A stretch of DNA of 32,000 nucleotides from an uncultured bacterium (lineage in GTDB: Bacteria > Margulisbacteria > WOR-1 > CAVSGV01). The DNA is taken from NCBI GenBank assembly GCA_963699255.1, contig OY969425.1:1560001-1592000 (forward strand). Direction: 5' to 3'. The stretch's first letter is position 1, and every line of letters begins with the position of its first letter. Position numbers and translations under genes: made by a program. The notes under the pieces are model-generated. The model searched no databases. It was not told the origin of the DNA and saw nothing but the letters and a program-made list of their open reading frames with translations. Of the stretch, positions 4,489-27,486 are shown one piece after another.

Positions 4489-5082
4489 ATGAACATCTAT
4501 TTTGAATTACTGCAGGCCGTTGTGGCCCTTTTCATAATAATCGATCCTCTAGGGAACCTGCCGGTCTTCATAGGATTGACCGAAGGAATGACGAAAAAGG
4601 AAAGGAAAGACACATTTGTTGAGGCGCTCTATGTCGGGTTCTTGCTTTTGCTGCTTTTCACTCTGGCAGGCACCGGCATATTGGAGCTTTTCAAGATAAG
4701 CCTGAATGATTTCAAGATAGCGGGCGGGATACTTTTGCTTGCCATTTCATTATCCATGCTGGTAAGGGACCATTTTGTCGAATTGACCGACAAAAAGGAT
4801 ATTGGCGCGGTGCCGCTGGGAATACCTCTTCTGGTAGGACCGGGAGCCATAACCACGGCAATGGTCTTGATAGGCATGTACGGCGTAAAACTCACGCTGG
4901 TTGCGGTTATCATTAATTTCATTGTAAGTGGTGTGATATTTTACTGGGCCGAGGCGATATACGAAAGGCTTGGCCATACGGGGTCGATGATCATCGCGAA
5001 GGTAATGGCCATAATTCTCGCGGCGATCGCCGTGAAGTTCATACGCGAGGGCATCGTAAGTATATTTAAGTTTTACGCGTGA
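4489..5082 (+). CDS. MarC-family (UPF0056) integral membrane protein
   Basis: The family's N-terminal motif FIIIDPLGNLPVF follows about six predicted TM segments; internal GPGAITT motif. The ATG at 4489 lies downstream of the predicted promoter, which overlaps the longer ORF start at 4441. Confidence 0.75.
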   Translation: MNIYFELLQAVVALFIIIDPLGNLPVFIGLTEGMTKKERKDTFVEALYVGFLLLLLFTLAGTGILELFKISLNDFKIAGGILLLAISLSMLVRDHFVELTDKKDIGAVPLGIPLLVGPGAITTAMVLIGMYGVKLTLVAVIINFIVSGVIFYWAEAIYERLGHTGSMIIAKVMAIILAAIAVKFIREGIVSIFKFYA

Positions 5083-5128
5083 GCCCTTCGACAGGCTCAG
5101 GACAAGCCCATTGACAGGCTTATTACGT

Positions 5129-5202
5129 GGCTGGGTAGCTCAGTTGGTTAGAGCATGCGGCTCATACCCGCAGTGTCGGCAGTTCGAATCTGCCCCCAGC
5201 CA
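5129..5202 (+). tRNA. tRNA-Met (anticodon CAT), elongator type
   Basis: Hand-folded cloverleaf: acceptor GGCTGGG/CCCAGCC, D arm GCTC/GAGC, anticodon stem TGCGG/CCGCA with loop CTCATAC, T arm GGCAG-TTCGAAT-CTGCC, discriminator A. CCA is not encoded. The G1-C72 pair argues against an initiator. C38 and the overall sequence resemble elongator Met more than Ile2. Confidence 0.85.
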
Positions 5203-5218
5203 ATTATTAAGATGGCGA

Positions 5219-18940: not shown

Positions 18941-20527
18941 ATGAAGATCGCACTGGCCCAGATCAATCCCACCGTCGGCGCGCTTGAAAGCAACGCGAAG
19001 AAGATCATCGAATACATCGGCAAGGCAAAAGCGCAGGGCGCCGAACTTGTCGTTTTCCCCGAACTCGCGATAACCGGATATCCGCCCGAAGACCTGGTCC
19101 TTAAACCTCAGTTCATCGCTGACAACATTGACGCCCTGAAAAAGATCGTAAAAGCCTCAAAGGGAATGGGAGTGTTCGTCGGCTTTGTGGACAGGAAAGG
19201 CAAAGACCTGTATAACGCCGGCGCTTTCATCGATAACGGAAAGATCATCAAGATATACCATAAGAACCACCTGCCTAATTACGGAGTCTTTGACGAGAAG
19301 AGATATTTCAAGGAAGGGGAGGGATCCGCGGTCGTCAGCTTCCGCGGGGTAAAGATCGGCCTCGGAATATGCGAGGACATATGGGTGGAAGACGGGCCGT
19401 ACAAGGGCGAAGCGAAGGCGGGGGCAAAGATAATACTAAATATCAACGCCTCTCCGTATGAAGCCGGCAAGATATATGACAGGGAAAAGATACTGAAGAA
19501 AAGGGCGATCGGCACAAGGGCTCACATAGTTTACGTCAATATGGTCGGCGGGCAGGATGAGCTGGTCTTTGACGGCGGCAGCATGGTCATTAACGGCAAG
19601 GGGAAGCTGATCGCTTCCGCCCCGCAGTATAAAGAAGCGCTTTTGATCATAGACGAAAAAGGCGGGAAGATCACGCCCAGGCTCGAACCTCTCGCCGAGA
19701 TATACGAAGCTCTGACAATGGGCGTCCGCGACTATGTAGATAAGAACAAATTCGGCGGAGTGATAATCGGGATATCCGGCGGGATCGATTCTGCCCTTAC
19801 CGCAACTATCGCCTGCGACGCGCTCGGGAAGGAAAGGATCCACACCGTTTTCATGCCATCGGAATATACGGCGAAGCAGAGCCTTGATGATTCGGTCATG
19901 GTGACGAAAAATCTGGGCGTAAAAATGGATACCATCCCTATCAAGGACATTTTCTCGCAGTATCTCTCCACCCTGGCACCCAGCTTCCGCGGAAGACCCG
20001 CTGACATCGCCGAGGAAAACCTGCAGGCGAGGATAAGAGGCAATATATTAATGGCGCTGTCGAACAAATTCGGCTGGCTCGTCCTGAACACCGGGAATAA
20101 ATCCGAGACTTCAACTGGATATTGCACGCTTTACGGGGACATGGCGGGCGGATTCAGCGTCCTGAAGGACATCCCGAAAACGCTGGCCTATAAGCTGGTG
20201 AACTGGAGGAACAAAAAGAAATCAGTAATTCCTCAGTCGATCATCGACAGGGTCCCGACGGCCGAACTGAAGCCTGATCAGAAAGACCAGGATACCCTGC
20301 CTTCTTACGAAGTGCTTGATCCGATAATGAATGCTTACGTCGAGGAGAACAAAAATGTCCGGCAGATCGTCGCAAAGGGGTTTGATAAAGCGACCGTGTC
20401 AAAGGTCGTTTCGCTGATAGACCGCTCTGAATACAAGAGGCGCCAGTCGGCTCCCGGGACAAGGATCACCCACCGTGCTTTCGGCAAGGACTGGAGACTG
20501 CCAATAACGAATCATTATAAGGCTTAA
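18941..20527 (+). CDS. nadE: glutamine-dependent NAD+ synthetase (CN-hydrolase domain plus NAD synthase domain)
   Basis: 528 aa. N-terminal nitrilase-like domain (VVFPELAITGYPPEDL, GLGICEDIW), then the PP-loop GISGGIDSAL, and NKSE..TGYCTLYGDMAGG. Confidence 0.93.
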   Translation: MKIALAQINPTVGALESNAKKIIEYIGKAKAQGAELVVFPELAITGYPPEDLVLKPQFIADNIDALKKIVKASKGMGVFVGFVDRKGKDLYNAGAFIDNGKIIKIYHKNHLPNYGVFDEKRYFKEGEGSAVVSFRGVKIGLGICEDIWVEDGPYKGEAKAGAKIILNINASPYEAGKIYDREKILKKRAIGTRAHIVYVNMVGGQDELVFDGGSMVINGKGKLIASAPQYKEALLIIDEKGGKITPRLEPLAEIYEALTMGVRDYVDKNKFGGVIIGISGGIDSALTATIACDALGKERIHTVFMPSEYTAKQSLDDSVMVTKNLGVKMDTIPIKDIFSQYLSTLAPSFRGRPADIAEENLQARIRGNILMALSNKFGWLVLNTGNKSETSTGYCTLYGDMAGGFSVLKDIPKTLAYKLVNWRNKKKSVIPQSIIDRVPTAELKPDQKDQDTLPSYEVLDPIMNAYVEENKNVRQIVAKGFDKATVSKVVSLIDRSEYKRRQSAPGTRITHRAFGKDWRLPITNHYKA

Positions 20528-20708
20528 GTTGAGCCTCTCATTTTTCCATTCTCCTCCCGTTTGTAATTTGGAATTTATTTGGTAATTGGTCATTGCCGAA
20601 CAAAGTGAGGTCTTAGCCCTAATAAGAGCTAATTGGAACCAGATTATAACAGAGCTTATGAGTATCTACAAATTAAGAGAATTGGCACCAGCTATATGAT
20701 TAAACACT

Positions 20709-20736
20709 CCCTAATGGTATTGGAATTAGGGTTTTA
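20709..20736 (+). terminator. rho-independent terminator at the left end of the element
   Basis: CCCTAAT (20709-20715) / ATTAGGG (20725-20731), 9-nt loop, then TTTT. Confidence 0.55.
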
Positions 20737-20761
20737 TGAGTAAGGCTTGACTAAGAAAAGG

Positions 20762-20977
20762 TTAGAATTTAAGCAATTCAGAGCAAGTCAAATTAAATGC
20801 TTTGGCTAATTTTTCAAGAGTATCTATCTTAATTGCAACTGGGGCTTTGCTTTCTATTCTTTGAAGGTGCTTATAGTCTATGCCTGCTAAACTTGCCAGA
20901 TTTTCTTGTGTATAATCGAATTTTCTGCGCAGCTCTTTTATTCTTTTAGCCAGTTGATTTTTGATGTTGACTTGCAT
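20762..20977 (-). CDS. XRE-family helix-turn-helix transcriptional regulator
   Basis: 71 aa from the ATG at 20977. LAKRIKELRRKFDYTQENLASLAGIDYKHLQRIE..., a typical HTH_3 pattern. Confidence 0.8.
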   Translation of the reverse strand: MQVNIKNQLAKRIKELRRKFDYTQENLASLAGIDYKHLQRIESKAPVAIKIDTLEKLAKAFNLTCSELLKF

Positions 20978-21012
20978 TACAGGGAAATTATCACACCAAC
21001 CACCGACACTTG

Positions 21013-21186
21013 ACACCGCATACGTGCGGTGTTAGGGTTTATCTCACAATAAAGGGACGTATATGAAAAGTGGCTCTTGAGGGCTGGGTTCAAAGCCCAA
21101 ATTAAGCTCGAAAAAGTGGCTTGAACAGAGAGTGAACAGAGAGAAATAGGGGGCTACTTCGTGCTTCAAGCACGATTCAAGCACGA
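21013..21186. promoter_or_regulatory. repeat-dense divergent control region between the XRE gene and the small-TM/TPR operon
   Basis: Inverted repeat ACACCGCA/TGCGGTGT (21013-21032). AAAAGTGGCT x2 (21066, 21112). TGAACAGAGAG x2 in tandem (21122-21143). Palindrome TCGTGCTTCAAGCACGA (21159-21175), followed by a second TTCAAGCACGA (21176-21186). Confidence 0.55.
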
Positions 21187-21205
21187 AAAAAAGGAGAGGA
21201 GAAAA

Positions 21206-21406
21206 ATGACAATTACACCTGAAGATAGAGAGGAAATAACCAAAGGGGTTTTCAGGGCACAGAAAAGAAGCCAATGGAGAGGAACTCTGCTTTGGCTTGC
21301 TATATTCCTTGGTTGGCTTCCTTGTATGCTGATATTTCCAAAGGCAAGCGGTTATGTTTATATTGGGCTGATAGTTTTAAGCATTTGGTATTATGTTAAA
21401 GGATAA
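21206..21406 (+). CDS. small two-TM membrane protein (hypothetical)
   Basis: 66 aa from the ATG at 21206, preceded by AAGGAGAGGAG. Two hydrophobic segments. Confidence 0.5.
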   Translation: MTITPEDREEITKGVFRAQKRSQWRGTLLWLAIFLGWLPCMLIFPKASGYVYIGLIVLSIWYYVKG

Positions 21407-21432
21407 GAGACAATAAAAGGAGGTAAAAGAAA

Positions 21433-23286
21433 ATGAAAAAAATAATAATAGGGCTTATATTTTTATGTTTAAGTTCTACAGCTATATTTGCAGATAATAT
21501 TAAAAATGCGGAGAATTACTTATATCGAGGTTTAGCAAAAGTTGAATTACAAGACTATCGAGGAGCTATAGAGGACTTAACAAAAGCGATAGAGCTGAAT
21601 CCTAAAAATGCAAAAGCTTACTGTGGTCGAGGTTCTGCCAACAGTGCGCTAGGAGACCATGCGGGTGCTATTGAGGAATTTAATAAAGCAATAGAGTTAG
21701 CCCCTAATTATGCGCCTGCTTACTATCTTCGGGGTTGTGTTAAAAGTGGGCTGAAAGACTATCAAGGAGCTATCGAGGACTTAACAAAAGCAATAAAGAT
21801 AGACCCTACATATGCGGAGGCATATTATCTTCGAGCAAACTCTTATGGTGCGCTAGCTGGTGCTGAGCAGAATGTAAAATACTATACAAAATCTGGGAAG
21901 GATATGAAGAACTATAGTAAAGTAAAAGGAATAAACAATACAAAAGCTATTGAGGTAATAAAGCTAATCCCTCAAAATGCAGAAGATTACTTAAATCGAG
22001 GGAAGGCTAAAATGGTGACAGGAGACGATGCGGGCGCGAATGAAGACTACAAAAAAGCTATCGAGGTCGCCACCAAAGCAATAGAGCTAACCCCTAAAAA
22101 TATAGAGGATTACTATAGTCAAGGCAATTCTGACTATGAAGTTGGAAATTATACACTCGCTATAGATGACTGCGATAAAGCAATAGAGTTAGACCCTAAT
22201 TATGCGCCTGTTTACTATCTTCGAGGAAAGGCTAAAGACGGGTTGGAAGACTCTATAGGAGCTACAAAAGACTTTAATAAAGTAATCGAGCTAACCCCAA
22301 AATATGCAGAGGATTACTTCTATCGAGGGGAGGCTAAGACTGCTTTAAAAGACTATGCAGGAGCCATTGATGAGTGCAATGCAGCAATAAAGTTAGACCC
22401 AAAAGATGCAAGGGCATACTATGGCCGAGGTTTCGCCGAAGCGAACTTAAAGGACTATACAAATGCTATTGATGACTGCAATAAAGCAATAAAGTTAGAC
22501 TCTAAAGATGCAAAGGCATACTATAGCCGAGGTTTCGCTGAAGCGAACTTAAAGGACTACACAAGTGCTATAGATGACTGTGATAAAGCTATAGAGTTGG
22601 ACTCTAATTATGCACCCGCTTACTTTATTCGAGGTTTCGCTAAAGCTCAGGTAAAAGACTATAAAAAAGCTATCAGTGACTTTGATGAAGTAATAGGGCG
22701 ACACCCTAATACAACGGCTTACCTATATCGAGGCAATGCTAAATATCGCTTAAAAAACTATACGGGCGCTATGGATGACTGCATGACAGTAATAAGGTTA
22801 GACCCTAAAAATGCACAGGCTTACTATCTTTTTGGCTATGCTGAACTAGACTCTGCTAATGAAGGTTTGCATAGAATAAAAGACTATGCAGAAGCTATCG
22901 ATTACTTTAATAAAGCAATAGAGTTAAATCCCAAATTTGCAGAGGCTTATTGTGGCCGAGGTAAGGCTAAAGGTGCGCTTGGAGACCATTCAGCAATCGA
23001 TGACTGCAATAAAGCAATAGAGCTAAACCCTAATGCAGAGATTTACTGTGAGTGTGGTTGGACTAAGGTCAACTTAAAAGATTATTCAGCTGCCATAGAT
23101 GACTTCAATACAGCAATAAAATTAGACCCAAAAAATGGAAGGGCTTATTGTGGTCGAGGGTTAGCTAAATTTGAACAGGGAGATAAACAAGGAGCATTAG
23201 AAGACGAAAGCACAGCAGGTGAGTTAGGTTTTTCTGGGGCATATGAGGTTATAAAAGAAATACAGTCAGGCGAACTTGCCAAGTAA
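21433..23286 (+). CDS. secreted tetratricopeptide-repeat protein
   Basis: 617 aa. Strong RBS AAAGGAGG. Signal peptide IIIGLIFLCLSSTAIFA. More than 12 34-aa TPR units (A.AYY.RG.AK..L.DY.GAI.D..KAIELDP). Confidence 0.85.
   Translation: MKKIIIGLIFLCLSSTAIFADNIKNAENYLYRGLAKVELQDYRGAIEDLTKAIELNPKNAKAYCGRGSANSALGDHAGAIEEFNKAIELAPNYAPAYYLRGCVKSGLKDYQGAIEDLTKAIKIDPTYAEAYYLRANSYGALAGAEQNVKYYTKSGKDMKNYSKVKGINNTKAIEVIKLIPQNAEDYLNRGKAKMVTGDDAGANEDYKKAIEVATKAIELTPKNIEDYYSQGNSDYEVGNYTLAIDDCDKAIELDPNYAPVYYLRGKAKDGLEDSIGATKDFNKVIELTPKYAEDYFYRGEAKTALKDYAGAIDECNAAIKLDPKDARAYYGRGFAEANLKDYTNAIDDCNKAIKLDSKDAKAYYSRGFAEANLKDYTSAIDDCDKAIELDSNYAPAYFIRGFAKAQVKDYKKAISDFDEVIGRHPNTTAYLYRGNAKYRLKNYTGAMDDCMTVIRLDPKNAQAYYLFGYAELDSANEGLHRIKDYAEAIDYFNKAIELNPKFAEAYCGRGKAKGALGDHSAIDDCNKAIELNPNAEIYCECGWTKVNLKDYSAAIDDFNTAIKLDPKNGRAYCGRGLAKFEQGDKQGALEDESTAGELGFSGAYEVIKEIQSGELAK
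22384..22587 (+). repeat. near-identical 102-bp (one TPR unit) tandem duplication
   Basis: GCAATAAAGTTAGAC... starts at 22384 and 22486. The two units differ at only a handful of positions. Confidence 0.85.
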
Positions 23287-23367
23287 AAGAAGTTGAAAGG
23301 CGCTTAAGAATCGAGAATTATGCTCAGAACATTCCGCCTTTGTTATGAAACAGAAACATATTTATAC

Positions 23368-23415
23368 TTGACAGTATAATTGAGGCATAATAGAATTATA
23401 CTTAAAGGTATAATT
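23368..23415 (+). promoter_or_regulatory. promoter with three GTATAATT operator-like sites
   Basis: TTGACA (23368-23373), 17 nt, TAGAAT (23391-23396). GTATAATT at 23374 and 23408, and its inverse AATTATAC at 23394-23401. These overlap the spacer, the -10 and the RBS region. Confidence 0.6.
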
Positions 23416-23416
23416 T

Positions 23417-24352
23417 ATGAGCGAAAACAAACCCACCCTAAAAAAATTACTAACAGAACAACTGTATAACAATAGAAAAGTTGATGCTTATCTATCAGAA
23501 AATTATAAGATTACTAAACAAACTTTTGTCGACCTTCACGAGCCAATCTTTACGCTAAAAAACTCACAAACTATAGTTAACAACTTAACGTATCGCAAGG
23601 TTAATGATTGGGATGCAAAAAACATAATATCAGGTTCCAGAGATAACGCTGAGTCAGGTTGGCGTAAATTTTCTGCAATAGACATCATCAAATTACTCAT
23701 AATAACTGACCTTAGGAAAATTGGATGCTCCATAGATAAAATAAAGAAAATCCTTTATGAAATTGCAAATGGGAAAGTCAACTTATGGAAACTCGAATAT
23801 CCTGATGGGAAAGCAAATCTTCGCCGGCTCAAAGAGTATAAGGAAGAGGAAGATAGGTTTTTACAGCTTGAATATTACACTTTAGGATGCTTGGGTGGTG
23901 AAAAAATAGTTCTTTCAATTGATGAAAATGATAATCCCATGTTTCTTATTGAGCGTGATTTTGTAAGCTTTTATTCCGCACTTGAAGACAGCGCCTCCCC
24001 TTTCATAGTCCTTCCATTTTTCTCATACATACACGCACTTGCAAGAAAATATGGAGACATGAATATTAAAATACGTGAAGGCTCTACAATATCCGAATTA
24101 TTCAATAATATCCTAACTGAAAAAGAGAAAAAAATAATCGATATTATTAGAAATAAAGATTTTCAAGAAATCAATATCAATAAAACCGATAAAGAGGAAT
24201 TAAATATAAAAGCAAAATCGAGAAAAAACAAACAACTGTCTAATAAGGAAATAATTGAACTTATCAAAAGTAAACAGTATCAAAAGGTTGAAGTTATTAC
24301 TTCGGCTGGGAAAATAGTAGCAGCGATACAAGAAGAAAGCATCAAGGCTTAG
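23417..24352 (+). CDS. hypothetical protein with a MerR-like HTH segment
   Basis: 311 aa. Residues ~55-115 (LTYRKVNDWDAKNII...GWRKFSAIDIIKLLIITDLRKIGCSIDKIKKIL) follow the MerR-family pattern (.Y....G.......G.R.YS..D...L..I..LR..G.S...I). The rest is unrecognised. Confidence 0.6.
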   Translation: MSENKPTLKKLLTEQLYNNRKVDAYLSENYKITKQTFVDLHEPIFTLKNSQTIVNNLTYRKVNDWDAKNIISGSRDNAESGWRKFSAIDIIKLLIITDLRKIGCSIDKIKKILYEIANGKVNLWKLEYPDGKANLRRLKEYKEEEDRFLQLEYYTLGCLGGEKIVLSIDENDNPMFLIERDFVSFYSALEDSASPFIVLPFFSYIHALARKYGDMNIKIREGSTISELFNNILTEKEKKIIDIIRNKDFQEININKTDKEELNIKAKSRKNKQLSNKEIIELIKSKQYQKVEVITSAGKIVAAIQEESIKA

Positions 24353-24450
24353 ACTATTGAGACAAACTCAGAGTTTATAGCCTTTATTCTATAATATTTT
24401 AGCAAGGGGCATCAGTATCAAACTGGACTCAATGCAAGAGGAGTCCAGTT

Positions 24451-24609
24451 ATGCTGACTGTCGAACAATGCAGGAAGCACTTAAAAGGAAAGTATACCGA
24501 CGAACAGATTGAAGAAATGAAAGAGGCCTTATACAAATTAGCTGAGGTGTTAGTAGGTGAATATCTCGGCAAAGCGAGGCAAACAAATGACAACCGAAAA
24601 ACAAATTGA
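24451..24609 (+). CDS. small hypothetical protein (52 aa, below the ORF-track cutoff)
   Basis: ATG at 24451, 8 nt after GAGGAG. Translation MLTVEQCRKHLKGKYTDEQIEEMKEALYKLAEVLVGEYLGKARQTNDNRKTN. It overlaps the next ORF's start. Confidence 0.4.
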   Translation: MLTVEQCRKHLKGKYTDEQIEEMKEALYKLAEVLVGEYLGKARQTNDNRKTN

Positions 24610-25117
24610 GGCAAACAAACTAAATGCCTTAAAAGGCGGAGTTAAAACTATTGAGGGGAAATCTATCAGCAAAATGAATGCTCTGAAATTCGGGTTTTTC
24701 AGTAAGATAGTCAATGATTATGATAAGCTGGAGAGCGAAGATTTCTGTCAGGAAATATACGAGTATTATCAACCTGAGAATACCTATGAAAGTCAATTAG
24801 TTGAGATTGTTCTTTCTAACCTTCTTGTATATAGAAGAATATGCTTTATTGAGGACGAATATATAAAGTCACAATTGAATCCAACTATTACAGGCTCTTT
24901 AAGTGACGCTGACTATTTTATGGTGAAGAAAGGGTATACTCCTCAAATAGCCAGCAACTCAATTGATGAACTTGAAAAATTTCAGAAATATAAAACCTCA
25001 ACTTATGGGCTGATTGTAAAGGCTCAGCATGAGCTTGAACGTTTAACTGCAAAAAGAAAGGGGGATAATATCCCCATTCCGATGAGTTTGGACGTGAATG
25101 TTTCAAACAATCAATAA
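24587..25117 (+). CDS. hypothetical protein
   Basis: 176 aa from the ATG at 24587. The N-terminus MTTEKQIEANKLNALKGGVKTIEGKSISKMNALKFGF resembles, from memory, an uncharacterised family with a 'QIxANRxNAxKSTGPxTxEGKxxSxxNAxKHG' N-terminus. I cannot verify this without a search. Confidence 0.5.
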   Translation: MTTEKQIEANKLNALKGGVKTIEGKSISKMNALKFGFFSKIVNDYDKLESEDFCQEIYEYYQPENTYESQLVEIVLSNLLVYRRICFIEDEYIKSQLNPTITGSLSDADYFMVKKGYTPQIASNSIDELEKFQKYKTSTYGLIVKAQHELERLTAKRKGDNIPIPMSLDVNVSNNQ

Positions 25118-25232
25118 TTGGGTTCGTTTTGGAAAAACAGAAAAAGGGGACTCCCTGCTTCTAGCAGGGTTCTAGCAGGCAAATTCAGTTGCTCTGCTAT
25201 ACATGAGGCATTAAAAGAGATATGACGGAACT

Positions 25233-26729
25233 ATGAAAGCTATTATCTATTGCAGGGTATCAACAAAAGAACAAGCCGAACAAGGTTATAGTCTTGAAGG
25301 ACAGGAAAAAGAATGTAAACGGTTTGCTCAAGATAAGGGCTATGAAATTGATAGGGTGTTCATTGAGCGAGGAGAAAGCGCAAAGACACAGAATAGAACT
25401 GAACTTCAGAAACTTGTTAAGTATTGCATAGAGAAAAGGAAACAACTATCTGCCCTCGTTATTTGGAAGTATGACCGCCTTACAAGAAATCTTTCCGACC
25501 AAATGGAACTTGTAAAGACTTTTAGCTCTTTTGATATTAGAGTATTATCGGCAACAGAAAATAATGAAGATAGCTCTATTGGTAAGTTAATGAGAAACAT
25601 TATCGGCTCTTTCTCTCAATTCGAGAATGATATAAGGGCTGAGAGAACCATCAATGGCATGAAACAAGCTCTACTACAAGGGAGATGGTGCTGGCATGCT
25701 CCTCTCGGTTATAAACTAGCAAAAGACGATAAAAATAAAACAATATTAGTCCCTTCAGAAAATAACAAGCAAGTTGCAAAAGCCTTTCAGATGGCTGAAC
25801 TCGGCACATATAAACAATCGGAAATAGTGGAATATCTCAAGAAAAATAACCTCACAATAACCAAAAGCACACTTAATAGAATACTTAGGAATCCTCTTTA
25901 TGCAGGATTGATAAAAGTATCATGGCATAGCGATTATATCGAGGCAATACATAAGCCCACTATTTCAAAGGAAGCCTTTTTTAAGGTTCAGCTTATTCTG
26001 AGTGGAAAACGACCAAGTATCGCCCCAAAATTAAGGAATCATCCTGACTTTCCTTTAAGGAATTTTGTTAAATGTTCAGCCTGTGGGAAGAAACTCACAG
26101 GAAGTTGGTCTACAGGAAGAAAAAAGGTCAAATATGCTTATTATCATTGTAGAACTAAGGGATGTTCGCTTAATGTAAAGAAAGAAGCTCTAGACGCTAA
26201 ATTCTATGAGCTATTAAGGTCTATACAGCCAAATGCGGATGTTTTAGCTTTATTTGAAGCTATTATATTGGATGTATGGAAAAACAAGCAGGCAGAGCAA
26301 ATTAAAGAGGAATACAGGCTTGAAATGGAGTTGAATGCTCTTTCAAAAAAGAAAGATAGAATTGACGAGCTTATGATTAAAGGCACTTTTGATGACGCAA
26401 CTTATAAAAAGAAAATTGAAGAAATGAATAGTGAAATAATTATTAAAAGAACAGAATTGAATGAGGCGAAAATTGAACTGAATGACGCAGAGGCTTGTTT
26501 AAACTACTGTAAATCCTTTCTTTCAAATCTATCAAATCTTTGGGTTAATGCTCCACTTGACCTAAAACAACGGTTCCAAAGCCTTGTCTTTCCAGAGGGA
26601 ATAGCTTTTGACGGAGAAAAGTTTGGAACCGCTAATATTTCGCTTATCTTCAAGGAATTAAGCTCGGAAAATATTGCCAAATCTTCTTTGGTAGCCCTAA
26701 CGGGAGTCGAACCCGTGTTTACGCCTTGA
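25233..26729 (+). CDS. large serine recombinase (integrase)
   Basis: 498 aa. Resolvase catalytic domain AIIYCRVSTKEQ...YDRLTRN..., a recombinase domain, a zinc ribbon CSACGKKLTG...YYHCRTKGC, and a coiled coil. The last ~12 codons (VALTGVEPVFTP) are the antisense reading of tRNA-Glu. Confidence 0.9.
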   Translation: MKAIIYCRVSTKEQAEQGYSLEGQEKECKRFAQDKGYEIDRVFIERGESAKTQNRTELQKLVKYCIEKRKQLSALVIWKYDRLTRNLSDQMELVKTFSSFDIRVLSATENNEDSSIGKLMRNIIGSFSQFENDIRAERTINGMKQALLQGRWCWHAPLGYKLAKDDKNKTILVPSENNKQVAKAFQMAELGTYKQSEIVEYLKKNNLTITKSTLNRILRNPLYAGLIKVSWHSDYIEAIHKPTISKEAFFKVQLILSGKRPSIAPKLRNHPDFPLRNFVKCSACGKKLTGSWSTGRKKVKYAYYHCRTKGCSLNVKKEALDAKFYELLRSIQPNADVLALFEAIILDVWKNKQAEQIKEEYRLEMELNALSKKKDRIDELMIKGTFDDATYKKKIEEMNSEIIIKRTELNEAKIELNDAEACLNYCKSFLSNLSNLWVNAPLDLKQRFQSLVFPEGIAFDGEKFGTANISLIFKELSSENIAKSSLVALTGVEPVFTP

Positions 26730-26763
26730 GAGGGCGCTGTCCTAACCACTAGACGATAGGGCC
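26689..26763 (-). tRNA. tRNA-Glu (anticodon CTC), CCA encoded
   Basis: The reverse complement folds as acceptor GGCCCTA/TAGGGCT, D arm GTCT/GGAC, anticodon stem GCGCC/GGCGT with loop CTCTCAA, T arm ACGGG-TTCGACT-CCCGT, then A-CCA. Confidence 0.9.
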
Positions 26764-26937
26764 ATAGCAGAGCATTAGTATATCAAAATATCGGATTTGG
26801 GGCAAAAATGAATATGAAATCGAACGGGAAAAGTTAAGCCGCATTTGACTTCCGCGAAATGAAAGTTATAATATCCGCAATAATATGTAAACCCTGAAGT
26901 ATGCGCAAGCTTAACTTCAGAGTAAAGGGGGATAAAT

Positions 26938-27486
26938 ATGAAAAAAGTTTTGATCGTTCTTGTTGTGCTTATTGTTGTCATAGCGGCTGCTGTTCTTTAT
27001 TACCTTTCTTATATCGGTGCGTTCACAAATGTGGTGGTCACGGAAAAAGAAATGGGACCGCTCTATTTCGTGTATGTGCCTCACACTGGCGACTATGCGA
27101 AAGTGGGGCCGGTCATGAACGGTGTCATTAACAGGCTCGCGAGCGAATTTGATATCAAGGCGGGAAGAGGAATGGGGATATACTACAGCAACCCGAAGAC
27201 CACTAAGACGGCAGACCTGAAGAGCGATATCGGCTGCCTGCTTGAGAAATCCGACGAGTCGAAGGCCGACGCGATAATGAAGAAAATGAAGATGAAGATA
27301 ATGTTCCAGAAAAAGTATTATACGGCCGAATTCCCCATGAAGAACAACATGTCGATCATCATGGGAGTCATGAAAACCTATCCGAAGCTCAGCGAATACA
27401 TGAAGGTGAGGGGATATAAGCCTACGCCGTCGATCGAAATATACGAGAAGGATAAGATAATATACGCCTTCGAGATAAAGCAATAG
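26938..27486 (+). CDS. membrane-anchored GyrI-like (SOUL/effector-binding fold) protein
   Basis: 182 aa. N-terminal TM helix VLIVLVVLIVVIAAAVLYYL. The remainder follows the GyrI-like pattern (G.Y..V...M..V...L......A.R.MGIYY.NP......L.SD.G.....IEIY). Recognition only. Confidence 0.55.
   Translation: MKKVLIVLVVLIVVIAAAVLYYLSYIGAFTNVVVTEKEMGPLYFVYVPHTGDYAKVGPVMNGVINRLASEFDIKAGRGMGIYYSNPKTTKTADLKSDIGCLLEKSDESKADAIMKKMKMKIMFQKKYYTAEFPMKNNMSIIMGVMKTYPKLSEYMKVRGYKPTPSIEIYEKDKIIYAFEIKQ

Follow-up and report, generated by a model that had tools for sequence, protein, structure and literature searches.

A 6-kb element at the 3' end of a tRNA-Glu gene, with a large serine recombinase gene predicted to run across its attachment site

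What occupies the 3' end of a tRNA-Glu(CUC) gene in the genome of an uncultured member of the Margulisbacteria, and how could a serine recombinase make use of such a target? The question is raised by a 32,000-nt stretch of contig OY969425.1 (assembly GCA_963699255.1, positions 1,560,001 to 1,592,000 of the forward strand; hereafter the window, in whose own coordinates all positions are given). Here a 6,078-bp element at 20614-26700 lies at the tRNA gene's 3' end and encodes a large serine recombinase (LSR). We are confident in the following answer: 20614-26700 is an integrative element with a split LSR gene, and its LSR would pair the attachment site of the element (attP) with a host attachment site (attB) at the 3' strand of the tRNA acceptor stem and the discriminator base.

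The base composition sets this region apart from its surroundings. An earlier annotation made from the letters of the window alone (the sequence-only reading) had described a sharp change between about 20600 and 26690, and the GC content counted in 500-nt windows agrees, with 0.46-0.55 on either side vs 0.32-0.41 across ~20500-27000, or roughly 0.50 outside vs 0.35 within ~20550-26700. In 100-nt windows the drop starts at ~20500-20550 and the recovery falls at ~26650-27050; taken by itself, composition places the borders only to about +/-100 nt. The same reading had put the right border at the 3' end of an intact tRNA-Glu(CUC), which is what ARAGORN predicts, and had noted one 9-mer, TAGCCCTAA, at 20614-20622 and 26692-26700. 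This 9-mer has exactly two copies in the window, both on the + strand. On the tRNA strand it reads TTAGGGCTA, i.e. the last base of the T-stem, the 7-nt 3' strand of the acceptor stem and the discriminator A. On the left, the last base of nadE is 20527, at a terminator-like hairpin (20520-20536), and gene and hairpin together end 77 nt short of the left border; to the right of the tRNA-Glu follow a gene for a GyrI-like protein and a two-component system.

On the tRNA strand, the right copy of the 9-mer is followed by CCA and the left one by AGA. The AGA had been observed before and taken for what a displaced original tRNA end would look like; the observation stands, while the interpretation can be refined. 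Since the tRNA-Met gene of the window (5128-5203) is also without an encoded CCA, with TTA after the discriminator, the AGA is most simply read as the native downstream sequence of a host tRNA-Glu gene that did not encode its CCA. A tRNA-Met gene of this kind implies in turn that the host depends on a CCA-adding enzyme. The 5' part of the present tRNA-Glu gene, up to the crossover, is accordingly assigned to the host, and the discriminator-proximal bases together with the CCA to the element. The tRNA-Glu flanking a sister element in locus L162 is identical to that of the window.

The recombinase itself begins with a catalytic domain (PF00239, residues 3-152), in which R8, S10 and R55 are invariant across an alignment of 35 homologs, followed by PF07508 and the PF13408 zinc ribbon, whose C281, C284 and C306 are invariant and C311 nearly so in the same alignment. 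The closest solved structure for its N-terminal domain is that of TP901-1, and residues 200-433 match the C-terminal domain of A118 integrase (4KIS), the closest solved structure for that part. In an AlphaFold2 (AF2) model of the homolog P0036, long helices lie at 336-383 and 389-414, in keeping with a coiled-coil insert. With a catalytic domain, a recombinase domain and a zinc ribbon holding a coiled-coil insert, the protein is classified by its sequence as a large serine recombinase.

The sequence-only reading placed the LSR gene next to the tRNA. The two are indeed adjacent, but the relation is closer than that, as the gene overlaps the tRNA and attP lies inside it. The open reading frame (ORF) passes antisense through the acceptor stem, the T-arm and the variable region (...LVALTGVEPVFTP) and stops at a TGA in the anticodon loop, i.e. 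the complement of tRNA positions 35-37. Its last 10 codons (26700-26729, TGVEPVFTP and the stop) pass the crossover into host tRNA DNA, the first of them straddling the boundary between the repeated core and the adjoining host arm (B'). This arrangement is shared by relatives: almost all C-termini of the 35 homologs (49-70% identity, from metagenome-assembled genomes of several phyla) read ...LVAP-TGFEPxxx, which is the antisense translation of CCA, the acceptor strand and GGTTCGAAxCC. In 42 of 80 metagenome loci that encode LSR relatives, with identities as low as 31%, an ORF of 380 codons or more terminates within a tRNA on the opposite strand, giving 45 loci when the window, L162 and L166 are included; their targets are tRNA-Glu (32), tRNA-Ala (7), tRNA-Asn (2), tRNA-Lys (2), tRNA-His (1) and tRNA-Arg (1). 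A G[FIVLM]EP or RxEL ending is present in 78 of 133 full-length representatives of the 50%-identity clusters nearest the LSR family, with about a dozen more variants recognized by eye, and in a minority of the clade other frames of the tRNA are read.

If the C-terminus of the LSR is borrowed from the host, the excised element should encode another one. Joining 26700 to 20623, i.e. the predicted attP, lets the LSR ORF continue in frame for 24 codons (...LVAL followed by IRANWNQIITELMSIYKLRELAPAI and a stop), while the other two frames close at once; the protein is 514 aa long in this excised form vs 498 aa in the integrated form. Among its 63,996 six-frame codons, the window contains only 4 matches to the W-N-x-hydrophobic-hydrophobic pattern of this tail, and one in the right frame within a few codons of the junction would arise by chance with a probability of ~5e-4. 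A WNQI(I/L)xxL tail was recovered in eight other reconstructed elements (L162, L082, L085, L088, L091, L105, L106 and L147). It is also found natively, i.e. without any reconstruction, in P0036 (516 aa), P0068 (529 aa), P0098 (549 aa), P0166, P0271 and P0291, as well as in the LSRs of the phage-like IMG/VR contigs L170 and L171; on L170, genes for an endolysin and a ParB-like protein accompany that of the LSR. Starting at the core-encoded LVAx, the tails can all be aligned without a gap. P0098 is encoded on L168, a Logan contig of 7,258 nt with both ends identical over 30 nt; this contig looks like a circular relative carrying the attP form of the LSR, because identical ends of 30 nt fit a circle assembled with 31-mers, as we assume for this assembly.

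The tail segment also bears marks of selection. Compared with L162, the closest relative (70% LSR identity), its 25 codons show five synonymous and seven mostly conservative non-synonymous changes, and the stop codon is at the same position. Since the segment is untranslated in the integrated state, yet open and conserved, selection probably acts on it via the excised form. Directly behind the tail stop lies a terminator-like hairpin (CCCTAAT, a 9-nt loop, ATTAGGG and then TTTTAT), seen by eye and missed by a scan with a loop limit of 8. Taken together, the LSR ORF is predicted to cross attP, so that integration replaces the C-terminus of the enzyme. As a separate observation, window 20700-20735 and L162 ~95-130, both behind the tail stop, share CCCTA(A/T)TGGTATTGGAATT, while the flanking non-coding DNA has diverged; it is this shared stretch that makes up the terminator-like hairpin of the window.

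The geometry of the attachment sites leads to the same junction. We aligned the right (attR) and left (attL) sites of nine elements, anchored on the tRNA 3' end, together with the native attP sites of L168 and L167. In all nine integrated elements GAACC lies at an offset of 20 from the tRNA 3' end in B' vs 25 in the arm on the element side (P'), and the offset is also 25 in both native attP sites. The GAACC of P' sits within T(T/G)GGAACCA, and the window has a single occurrence of TTGGAACCA. In A118-family integrases the zinc-ribbon motif occupies positions 16-24 in attP vs 11-19 in attB (PMC3783163). For the tRNA-side half-sites, the outward shift of GAACC by 5 bp matches this attB/attP arrangement of serine integrases, and the element is consequently read as carrying a mimic of the T-arm at attP spacing. 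Both the in-frame conserved tail at the junction and the 5-bp motif offset uphold the borders, the type of recombinase and the tRNA target proposed in the sequence-only reading. A further symmetry, AAGCTC/GAGCTT, was considered as a half-site in the window and dropped, being too far from the core.

The host arm left of the left core (20594-20613) and the element-side P arm, which directly precedes the right core, are unlike in sequence, and the crossover is placed within the 9 bp because the sequences diverge immediately outside. Nine other elements have cores that overlap at offsets 3-6, and numbering the motif as in PMC3783163 points to the same place, which makes TAGC (26692-26695) the most likely site of the crossover. 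In ten independent elements, 5.2-11.4 kb in size, far-end repeats of 9-22 bp map to the same positions of the tRNA; the displaced copy of the tRNA end measures 9 bp in the window vs 13 bp in the sister element L162. The left flanks are not conserved between elements; in L085 and L147 they hold a hairpin followed by a T-run, which is what one would expect of DNA downstream of a tRNA gene. The best repeat of L116 was omitted from the crossover estimate as a border that is probably spurious, given that the TTGGAACC motif precedes it.

A repeat of 9 bp is short, and the pair could in principle be coincidental, with the true borders lying elsewhere, e.g. if the whole tRNA were part of the element. 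Shuffled sequences are expected to hold 0.18 copies of the 9-mer, at least two were found somewhere in the window in 1 of 100 shuffles, and composition places the border no better than +/-100 nt. Even so, we find a coincidence scarcely credible: the conserved in-frame tail and the 5-bp-shifted motif begin exactly at the left copy, the same geometry is seen in nine other elements, and 77 nt before the left copy is where nadE with its terminator-like site comes to an end.

Several results weigh against the integrative element as proposed. The search for an empty site yielded none: NadE relatives from a scan of genome contigs reach at most 65% identity and none has a tRNA-Glu beside nadE, while the nearest genomes (64-65% NadE identity) show no synteny with the window. 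A look-up of the MerR-type protein of the element (F1) returned the integrated state only, in the sole independent assembly. Nor was a circular junction of this very element seen, the circular-looking contig and the attP-form genes belonging to other members of the family. In the attachment-site alignment, no consistent mirror of the GAACC motif was found in the P and B arms. Scans of seven element proteins against Pfam, PHROGs, NCBIfam and PADLOC gave no capsid, replication, conjugation or packaging family above threshold, and in the AF2 model the tail helix has a predicted local distance difference test (pLDDT) score below 50 and does not dock, which lends no support to a specific role. In addition, exact-protein look-ups with NadE and the LSR gave no matches, and that with the GyrI-like neighbour gave only a Logan contig breaking inside the tRNA-Glu, with no empty site.

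The independent assembly, a Logan assembly of run ERR10755942, is identical to window 19542-26716 without a mismatch. Two contigs of the same run, L182 and L001, end inside the tRNA-Glu at window 26716 and 26736, i.e. 20 nt apart. These ends suggest a branch in the assembly graph caused by other tRNA-Glu copies or strain variants, and are not evidence of an empty site.

Part of this would suit a fixed, immobile remnant, i.e. an old insertion inherited vertically with an idle recombinase. The integrated state is the only one recovered, the tRNA end is repeated on the left over fewer bases than in L162 (9 bp vs 13 bp), no transfer genes were found in the Pfam, PHROGs, NCBIfam and PADLOC scans, and L162, whose tRNA is identical, also has a similar left flank (AGTGAG), so that the ancestry of the insertion could be shared. 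Several features speak against it: the LSR ORF, its catalytic residues and its zinc-ribbon cysteines are intact, the untranslated tail segment is open with the same stop codon as in L162 and synonymous changes, the P' motif is intact, and both the cargo and the genes to the right of the tRNA differ between the window and L162. We therefore judge a fixed remnant very unlikely and return to the integrative element.

Apart from the recombinase, ORF prediction and Pfam agree with the gene list of the sequence-only reading, i.e. a divergent XRE regulator, a MerR-like protein, a secreted-type 617-aa tetratricopeptide repeat (TPR) protein, a 66-aa protein with two transmembrane segments and two overlapping ORFs (Table 1). 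The XRE protein is probably the repressor of the element, and the palindrome over its start is a possible autoregulatory operator. Two 27-nt direct repeats, which at the same time make a 20-nt inverted repeat, surround a near-consensus promoter-like site at 23355-23415, which is likely to be the operator and promoter of the backbone operon. The AF2 model of F1 (pLDDT 80.5) was matched by Foldseek to GlnR, CvkR and CueR in the N-terminal DNA-binding domain only, with no fold match for the C-terminal domains, and its family has just 41 members in a database of 5.8 billion proteins. No family or structure match was found for the ~52-aa protein F2 in Pfam, PHROGs, NCBIfam, PADLOC or a profile search of the PDB. 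For the small hydrophobic protein, Pfam, PHROGs, NCBIfam and PADLOC gave no match, and no homolog was found in the other elements compared. The gene of the TPR protein is built of ~102-nt repeats.

Table 1. Features of the element and its attachment sites, in window coordinates
Feature	Position	Strand	Basis or remark
attL B arm, read as host DNA once downstream of the tRNA 3' end; ends TCT (AGA on the tRNA strand); extent approximate	20594-20613	.	between nadE terminator-like site and core
Left core copy TAGCCCTAA, 9 bp, attL	20614-20622	+	
attL P' arm, with TTGGAACC at 20633-20640	20623-20645	+	T-arm mimic, 5 bp further from core
Putative LSR C-terminal segment of the excised form (IRANWNQIITELMSIYKLRELAPAI, stop 20697-20699)	20623-20699	+	only junction frame open; tail homology
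Terminator-like hairpin right after tail stop	20709-20737	+	by eye; putative function
XRE/Cro-C1-type helix-turn-helix (HTH) regulator	20762-21016	-	Pfam HTH_3 E=2.7e-11; PHROGs transcriptional regulator/repressor; homologs in L162, L085, L168
Palindrome, 12-bp stem (CTTGACACCGCA/TGCGGTGTTAGG), over XRE start	21009-21036	.	sequence scan
Small protein, two hydrophobic segments, cargo; 81 aa from GTG, 66 aa from ATG at 21206	21161-21406	+	
617-aa TPR-repeat protein, N-terminal signal-like segment, cargo	21433-23286	+	Pfam TPR_1 E=4.7e-87
Promoter-like site TTGACA-17-TAGAAT (23368-23396) between repeats, just upstream of the MerR-type gene	23355-23415	+	sequence scan
F1, 311-aa MerR-type winged-HTH protein, backbone	23417-24352	+	Pfam MerR_1 E=2.4e-5
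F2, ~52-aa protein, backbone, most conserved LSR neighbour	24451-24609	+	homologs in other elements
F7, 186 aa (176 aa from ATG at 24587), overlaps F2	24557-25117	+	homologs in L162, L088
LSR, integrated form, 498 aa	25233-26729	+	Pfam Resolvase 1.9e-36, Recombinase 1.9e-9, Zn_ribbon_recom 3e-7
attR P arm, element side, inside LSR linker-coding region; ends TGG (encoded CCA); extent approximate	26667-26691	+	
tRNA-Glu(CUC), anticodon CTC, intact	26689-26763	-	ARAGORN
Right core copy TAGCCCTAA, 9 bp, attR	26692-26700	+	
attR B' arm, tRNA T-arm, with TCGAACC at 26707-26713	26701-26720	+	

Which of these genes belong to the element proper becomes apparent from a comparison of 12 elements by BLAST clustering. 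F1 is present in 8/12 and, with the aligned copies of the window, L162 and L163 counted in, the ~52-aa F2 in 9/12 of them, F2 standing upstream of the LSR gene in all eight aligned members, including the circular-looking L168 (homologs upstream of the LSR in L162, L082, L085, L088, L163, L167 and L168; an ORF of L091 was assigned by clustering). The XRE regulator occurs in 4/12 and the 186-aa F7 in 3/12. We therefore describe the backbone, from the sequences compared, as the XRE regulator, the MerR-type protein, the ~52-aa protein and the LSR, with varying cargo; the two orphan ORFs and the MerR-like gene, which the sequence-only reading had counted as cargo, are conserved genes of the family instead. 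The cargo of L162 consists of superinfection-immunity and MORN proteins; type I restriction-modification genes are found in L091 and, along with a gene for a PIN protein, in L163; and L088 has two large ORFs (721 and 975 aa). Neither the cargo nor the genes on the right-hand side of the tRNA are the same in L162 as in the window.

That the element shows no capsid, replication or conjugation motifs, as stated earlier, was also the outcome of the Pfam, PHROGs, NCBIfam and PADLOC scans. No relaxase, coupling protein or type IV secretion gene was found among the seven element proteins scanned, although an oriT may be present, no primase, helicase or Rep above threshold in Pfam, PHROGs and NCBIfam, and no defence family in PHROGs, NCBIfam or PADLOC. 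Such a small gene set could belong to a phage satellite, packaged by a helper and without transfer genes of its own, with F7 as a small-terminase-like packaging factor. The size of 6 kb and the repressor-integrase layout would be in keeping with this. So would the finding that distant relatives of the LSR, sharing its tail, lie in phage-like IMG/VR contigs that encode an endolysin, the serine-recombinase members among marine satellites and tycheposons, and the relative assembled as a 7.2-kb contig of its own whose two termini are identical, pointing to abundant free circles. The terminase link itself, i.e. a weak NCBIfam match of F7 to the terminase small subunit (E=0.0013) and the sole match of this protein, scores 18.5 bits vs a cut-off of 120 bits and was not reproduced in Pfam, PHROGs or a profile search of the PDB. 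Moreover, the F7 gene is found in only 3/12 elements, and no primase, helicase, capsid or packaging gene, and hence no replication or packaging module, was found in Pfam or PHROGs. A satellite is thus an improbable explanation in our view.

Starting from the anatomy, the borders, the split gene, the attachment-site geometry and the conservation within the family, we infer how such an integrative element may act, be regulated and move between cells. In the excised circle the LSR gene would run across attP and encode the 514-aa enzyme, with a conserved putative helix (NWNQIITELMSIYKLRELAPAI) as its last ~22 residues. This enzyme would pair attP with an attB centred on the 3' strand of the tRNA acceptor stem and the discriminator, reading TCGAACC of the T-arm on the tRNA side and the mimic TTGGAACC 5 bp further out on the element side, while DNA downstream of the tRNA, which is poorly conserved, would make up the other half of attB. 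With strands exchanged within TAGCCCTAA, the tRNA would stay intact, the element supplying the end of the gene including the CCA, and a 9-bp copy would be displaced to the far end. The LSR gene would thereby lose its last 24 codons and end in the antisense tRNA as a 498-aa form (...TGVEPVFTP). The XRE regulator would then probably silence the operon of the MerR-type, 52-aa, 186-aa and LSR genes. Excision probably needs a recombination directionality factor encoded by the element, for which the 52-aa F2 would be the best candidate.

It is tempting to speculate that the detachable helix is a built-in switch, the enzyme of the circle being tuned to integrate and the tRNA-tailed form being altered, e.g. 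silenced or biased towards excision; together with the recognition of the near-universal T-arm and its mimic, this would define a distinct and widespread class of serine integrases landing at tRNA genes. We put this forward as a tentative and on the whole doubtful proposal. The exchange may instead be a neutral by-product of an attP placed at the end of a gene, with the conservation of the tail reflecting a constraint on the DNA of the P' arm, and to this we give somewhat less than an even chance. The tail start (N-W-N-Q) is encoded by the T-arm-mimicking TTGGAACCA, and because of this, DNA and protein constraints are confounded there; the AF2 model shows no confident contact of the tail, and a minority of the clade reads the tRNA in other frames. 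The conservation nevertheless continues for 15-18 residues past the DNA motif as an amphipathic pattern with varied codons (I-[IL]-x-[DE]-[LIM]-x-x-[IV]-[YF]-x-[LF]), the position of the tail stop is conserved and a terminator-like hairpin follows the tail. A functional effect would also have a parallel in the tyrosine integrase IntP of phage Mx8: according to the passage in which PMC4701971 quotes that work, attP lies in the gene, integration replaces 112 C-terminal residues by 13 and the enzyme with the swapped C-terminus is less active.

How does this element compare with known systems? The integrases of the A118/LI and TP901-1 type phages have the same domain order (resolvase, recombinase, zinc ribbon with coiled-coil insert), and in the A118/LI type the shared motif also lies 5 bp further out in attP than in attB. 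The sequence relation is distant (38-58 bits), however, and the LSR of the window differs in its target, which is a tRNA end and not a protein-coding gene, in an attP inside the integrase gene, and in an extra C-terminal domain with a detachable tail helix. The Myxococcus phage Mx8 reportedly also inserts at a tRNA gene, but its enzyme comes from an unrelated family and recombines DNA by another chemistry, and the element is a full-size phage. Integrases of the SSV1 type likewise have attP in their own gene. The attachment site of streptococcal integrative and conjugative elements (ICEs) targeting rumA lies within a serine integrase gene as well, and integration alters both length and sequence of the C-terminus (PMC4701971). 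Those ICEs are conjugative, have a protein-coding target and shift the frame of both genes upon exchange, in contrast to the element of the window with its tRNA target, its 6 kb, no conjugation genes and an excised-form tail that is conserved across a very broad clade.

According to PMC4383910, islands at tRNA genes normally use tyrosine integrases, and Islander-type islands have the same layout as here, i.e. an intact tRNA beside the integrase, its 3' end found again as a displaced copy at the far end, and an element that restores the gene. The recombinase family is different, and the Islander repeat spans tens of bp up to the T or anticodon loop vs 9 bp at the acceptor end here. The sequence-only reading had called an LSR at a tRNA unusual. 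Insertion at tRNA genes by serine recombinases is indeed rare in the literature, but there are precedents, i.e. the filamentous phage phiRSM (tRNA-Ser) and a group of AICEs of Mycobacterium (tRNA-Leu) (PMC3218068), as well as the minority of Prochlorococcus tycheposons with an LSR; among 937 tycheposon-type elements, 27 have one. The enzyme of phiRSM is small and resolvase-like, and AICEs are conjugative; in what was read of the reports on AICEs, phiRSM and tycheposons, no attP inside a gene, T-arm mimicry or conserved swapped tail is described, and it is by these descriptions that we set them apart. Each ingredient of the system therefore has a precedent, and it is the combination of a cross-phylum LSR clade at tRNA 3' ends, T-arm mimicry, a detachable helix and very small elements that characterizes it; no description of these four together, or of this large tRNA-targeting LSR clade, was found in the papers searched. 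The large LSR survey of Durrant et al. has no tRNA in its main text and groups targets by clusters of protein-coding genes, and would therefore have missed this clade.

The clade is unusual in having a conserved RNA gene as its target and in exchanging its own C-terminus by the reaction that it catalyses. Serine integrases are the main tools for the insertion of large DNA, and the control of their direction is an active structural question; with a T-arm copy and a 5-bp offset, the clade offers a natural test set of many members for the model of zinc-ribbon positioning. Enzymes recognizing tRNA ends could also provide ready-made landing sites in many organisms. Across many uncultured phyla, elements of 5-11 kb carry genes for restriction-modification, PIN, superinfection-immunity and secreted TPR proteins, and they may be a common vehicle for small cargo in defence or surface interaction.

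Some loci of the wider set show features of their own. The cargo slot that the 617-aa TPR protein fills in the window is taken in L082 (6377-7084) by a TPR protein of 235 aa, and TPR proteins may thus be recurrent cargo. L147 has two candidate left ends, at 4591 and 5913, i.e. 1.3 kb apart at one tRNA-Glu, each with a copy of the tRNA 3' end and an in-frame tail starting with WN, and the outer one directly follows a terminator hairpin; this looks like a tandem or a remnant second element. At L101:3032-3160 the 3' end of a tRNA-Lys is repeated over 22 bp, and the tail motif comes only ~100 nt further in, still in frame, unlike the fixed spacing elsewhere. The LSR gene at L163:11440-11520 (Joint Genome Institute (JGI) contig Ga0209979_1000278) abuts a 3' fragment of ~49 nt of a tRNA-Glu(UUC), comprising the anticodon arm, the T-arm, the 3' strand of the acceptor stem and the CCA, with no D-arm or 5' acceptor strand and no tRNA found by ARAGORN; it may represent an insertion into the displaced tRNA remnant of another element. 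Finally, on the 14.2-kb Logan contig L167 (L167:1-6950, run SRR21285597), the attP-form LSR P0036 lies ~3 kb from type I-B CRISPR-Cas genes encoding Cas6, Cas3, Cas8b and a Cas4-Cas1 fusion.

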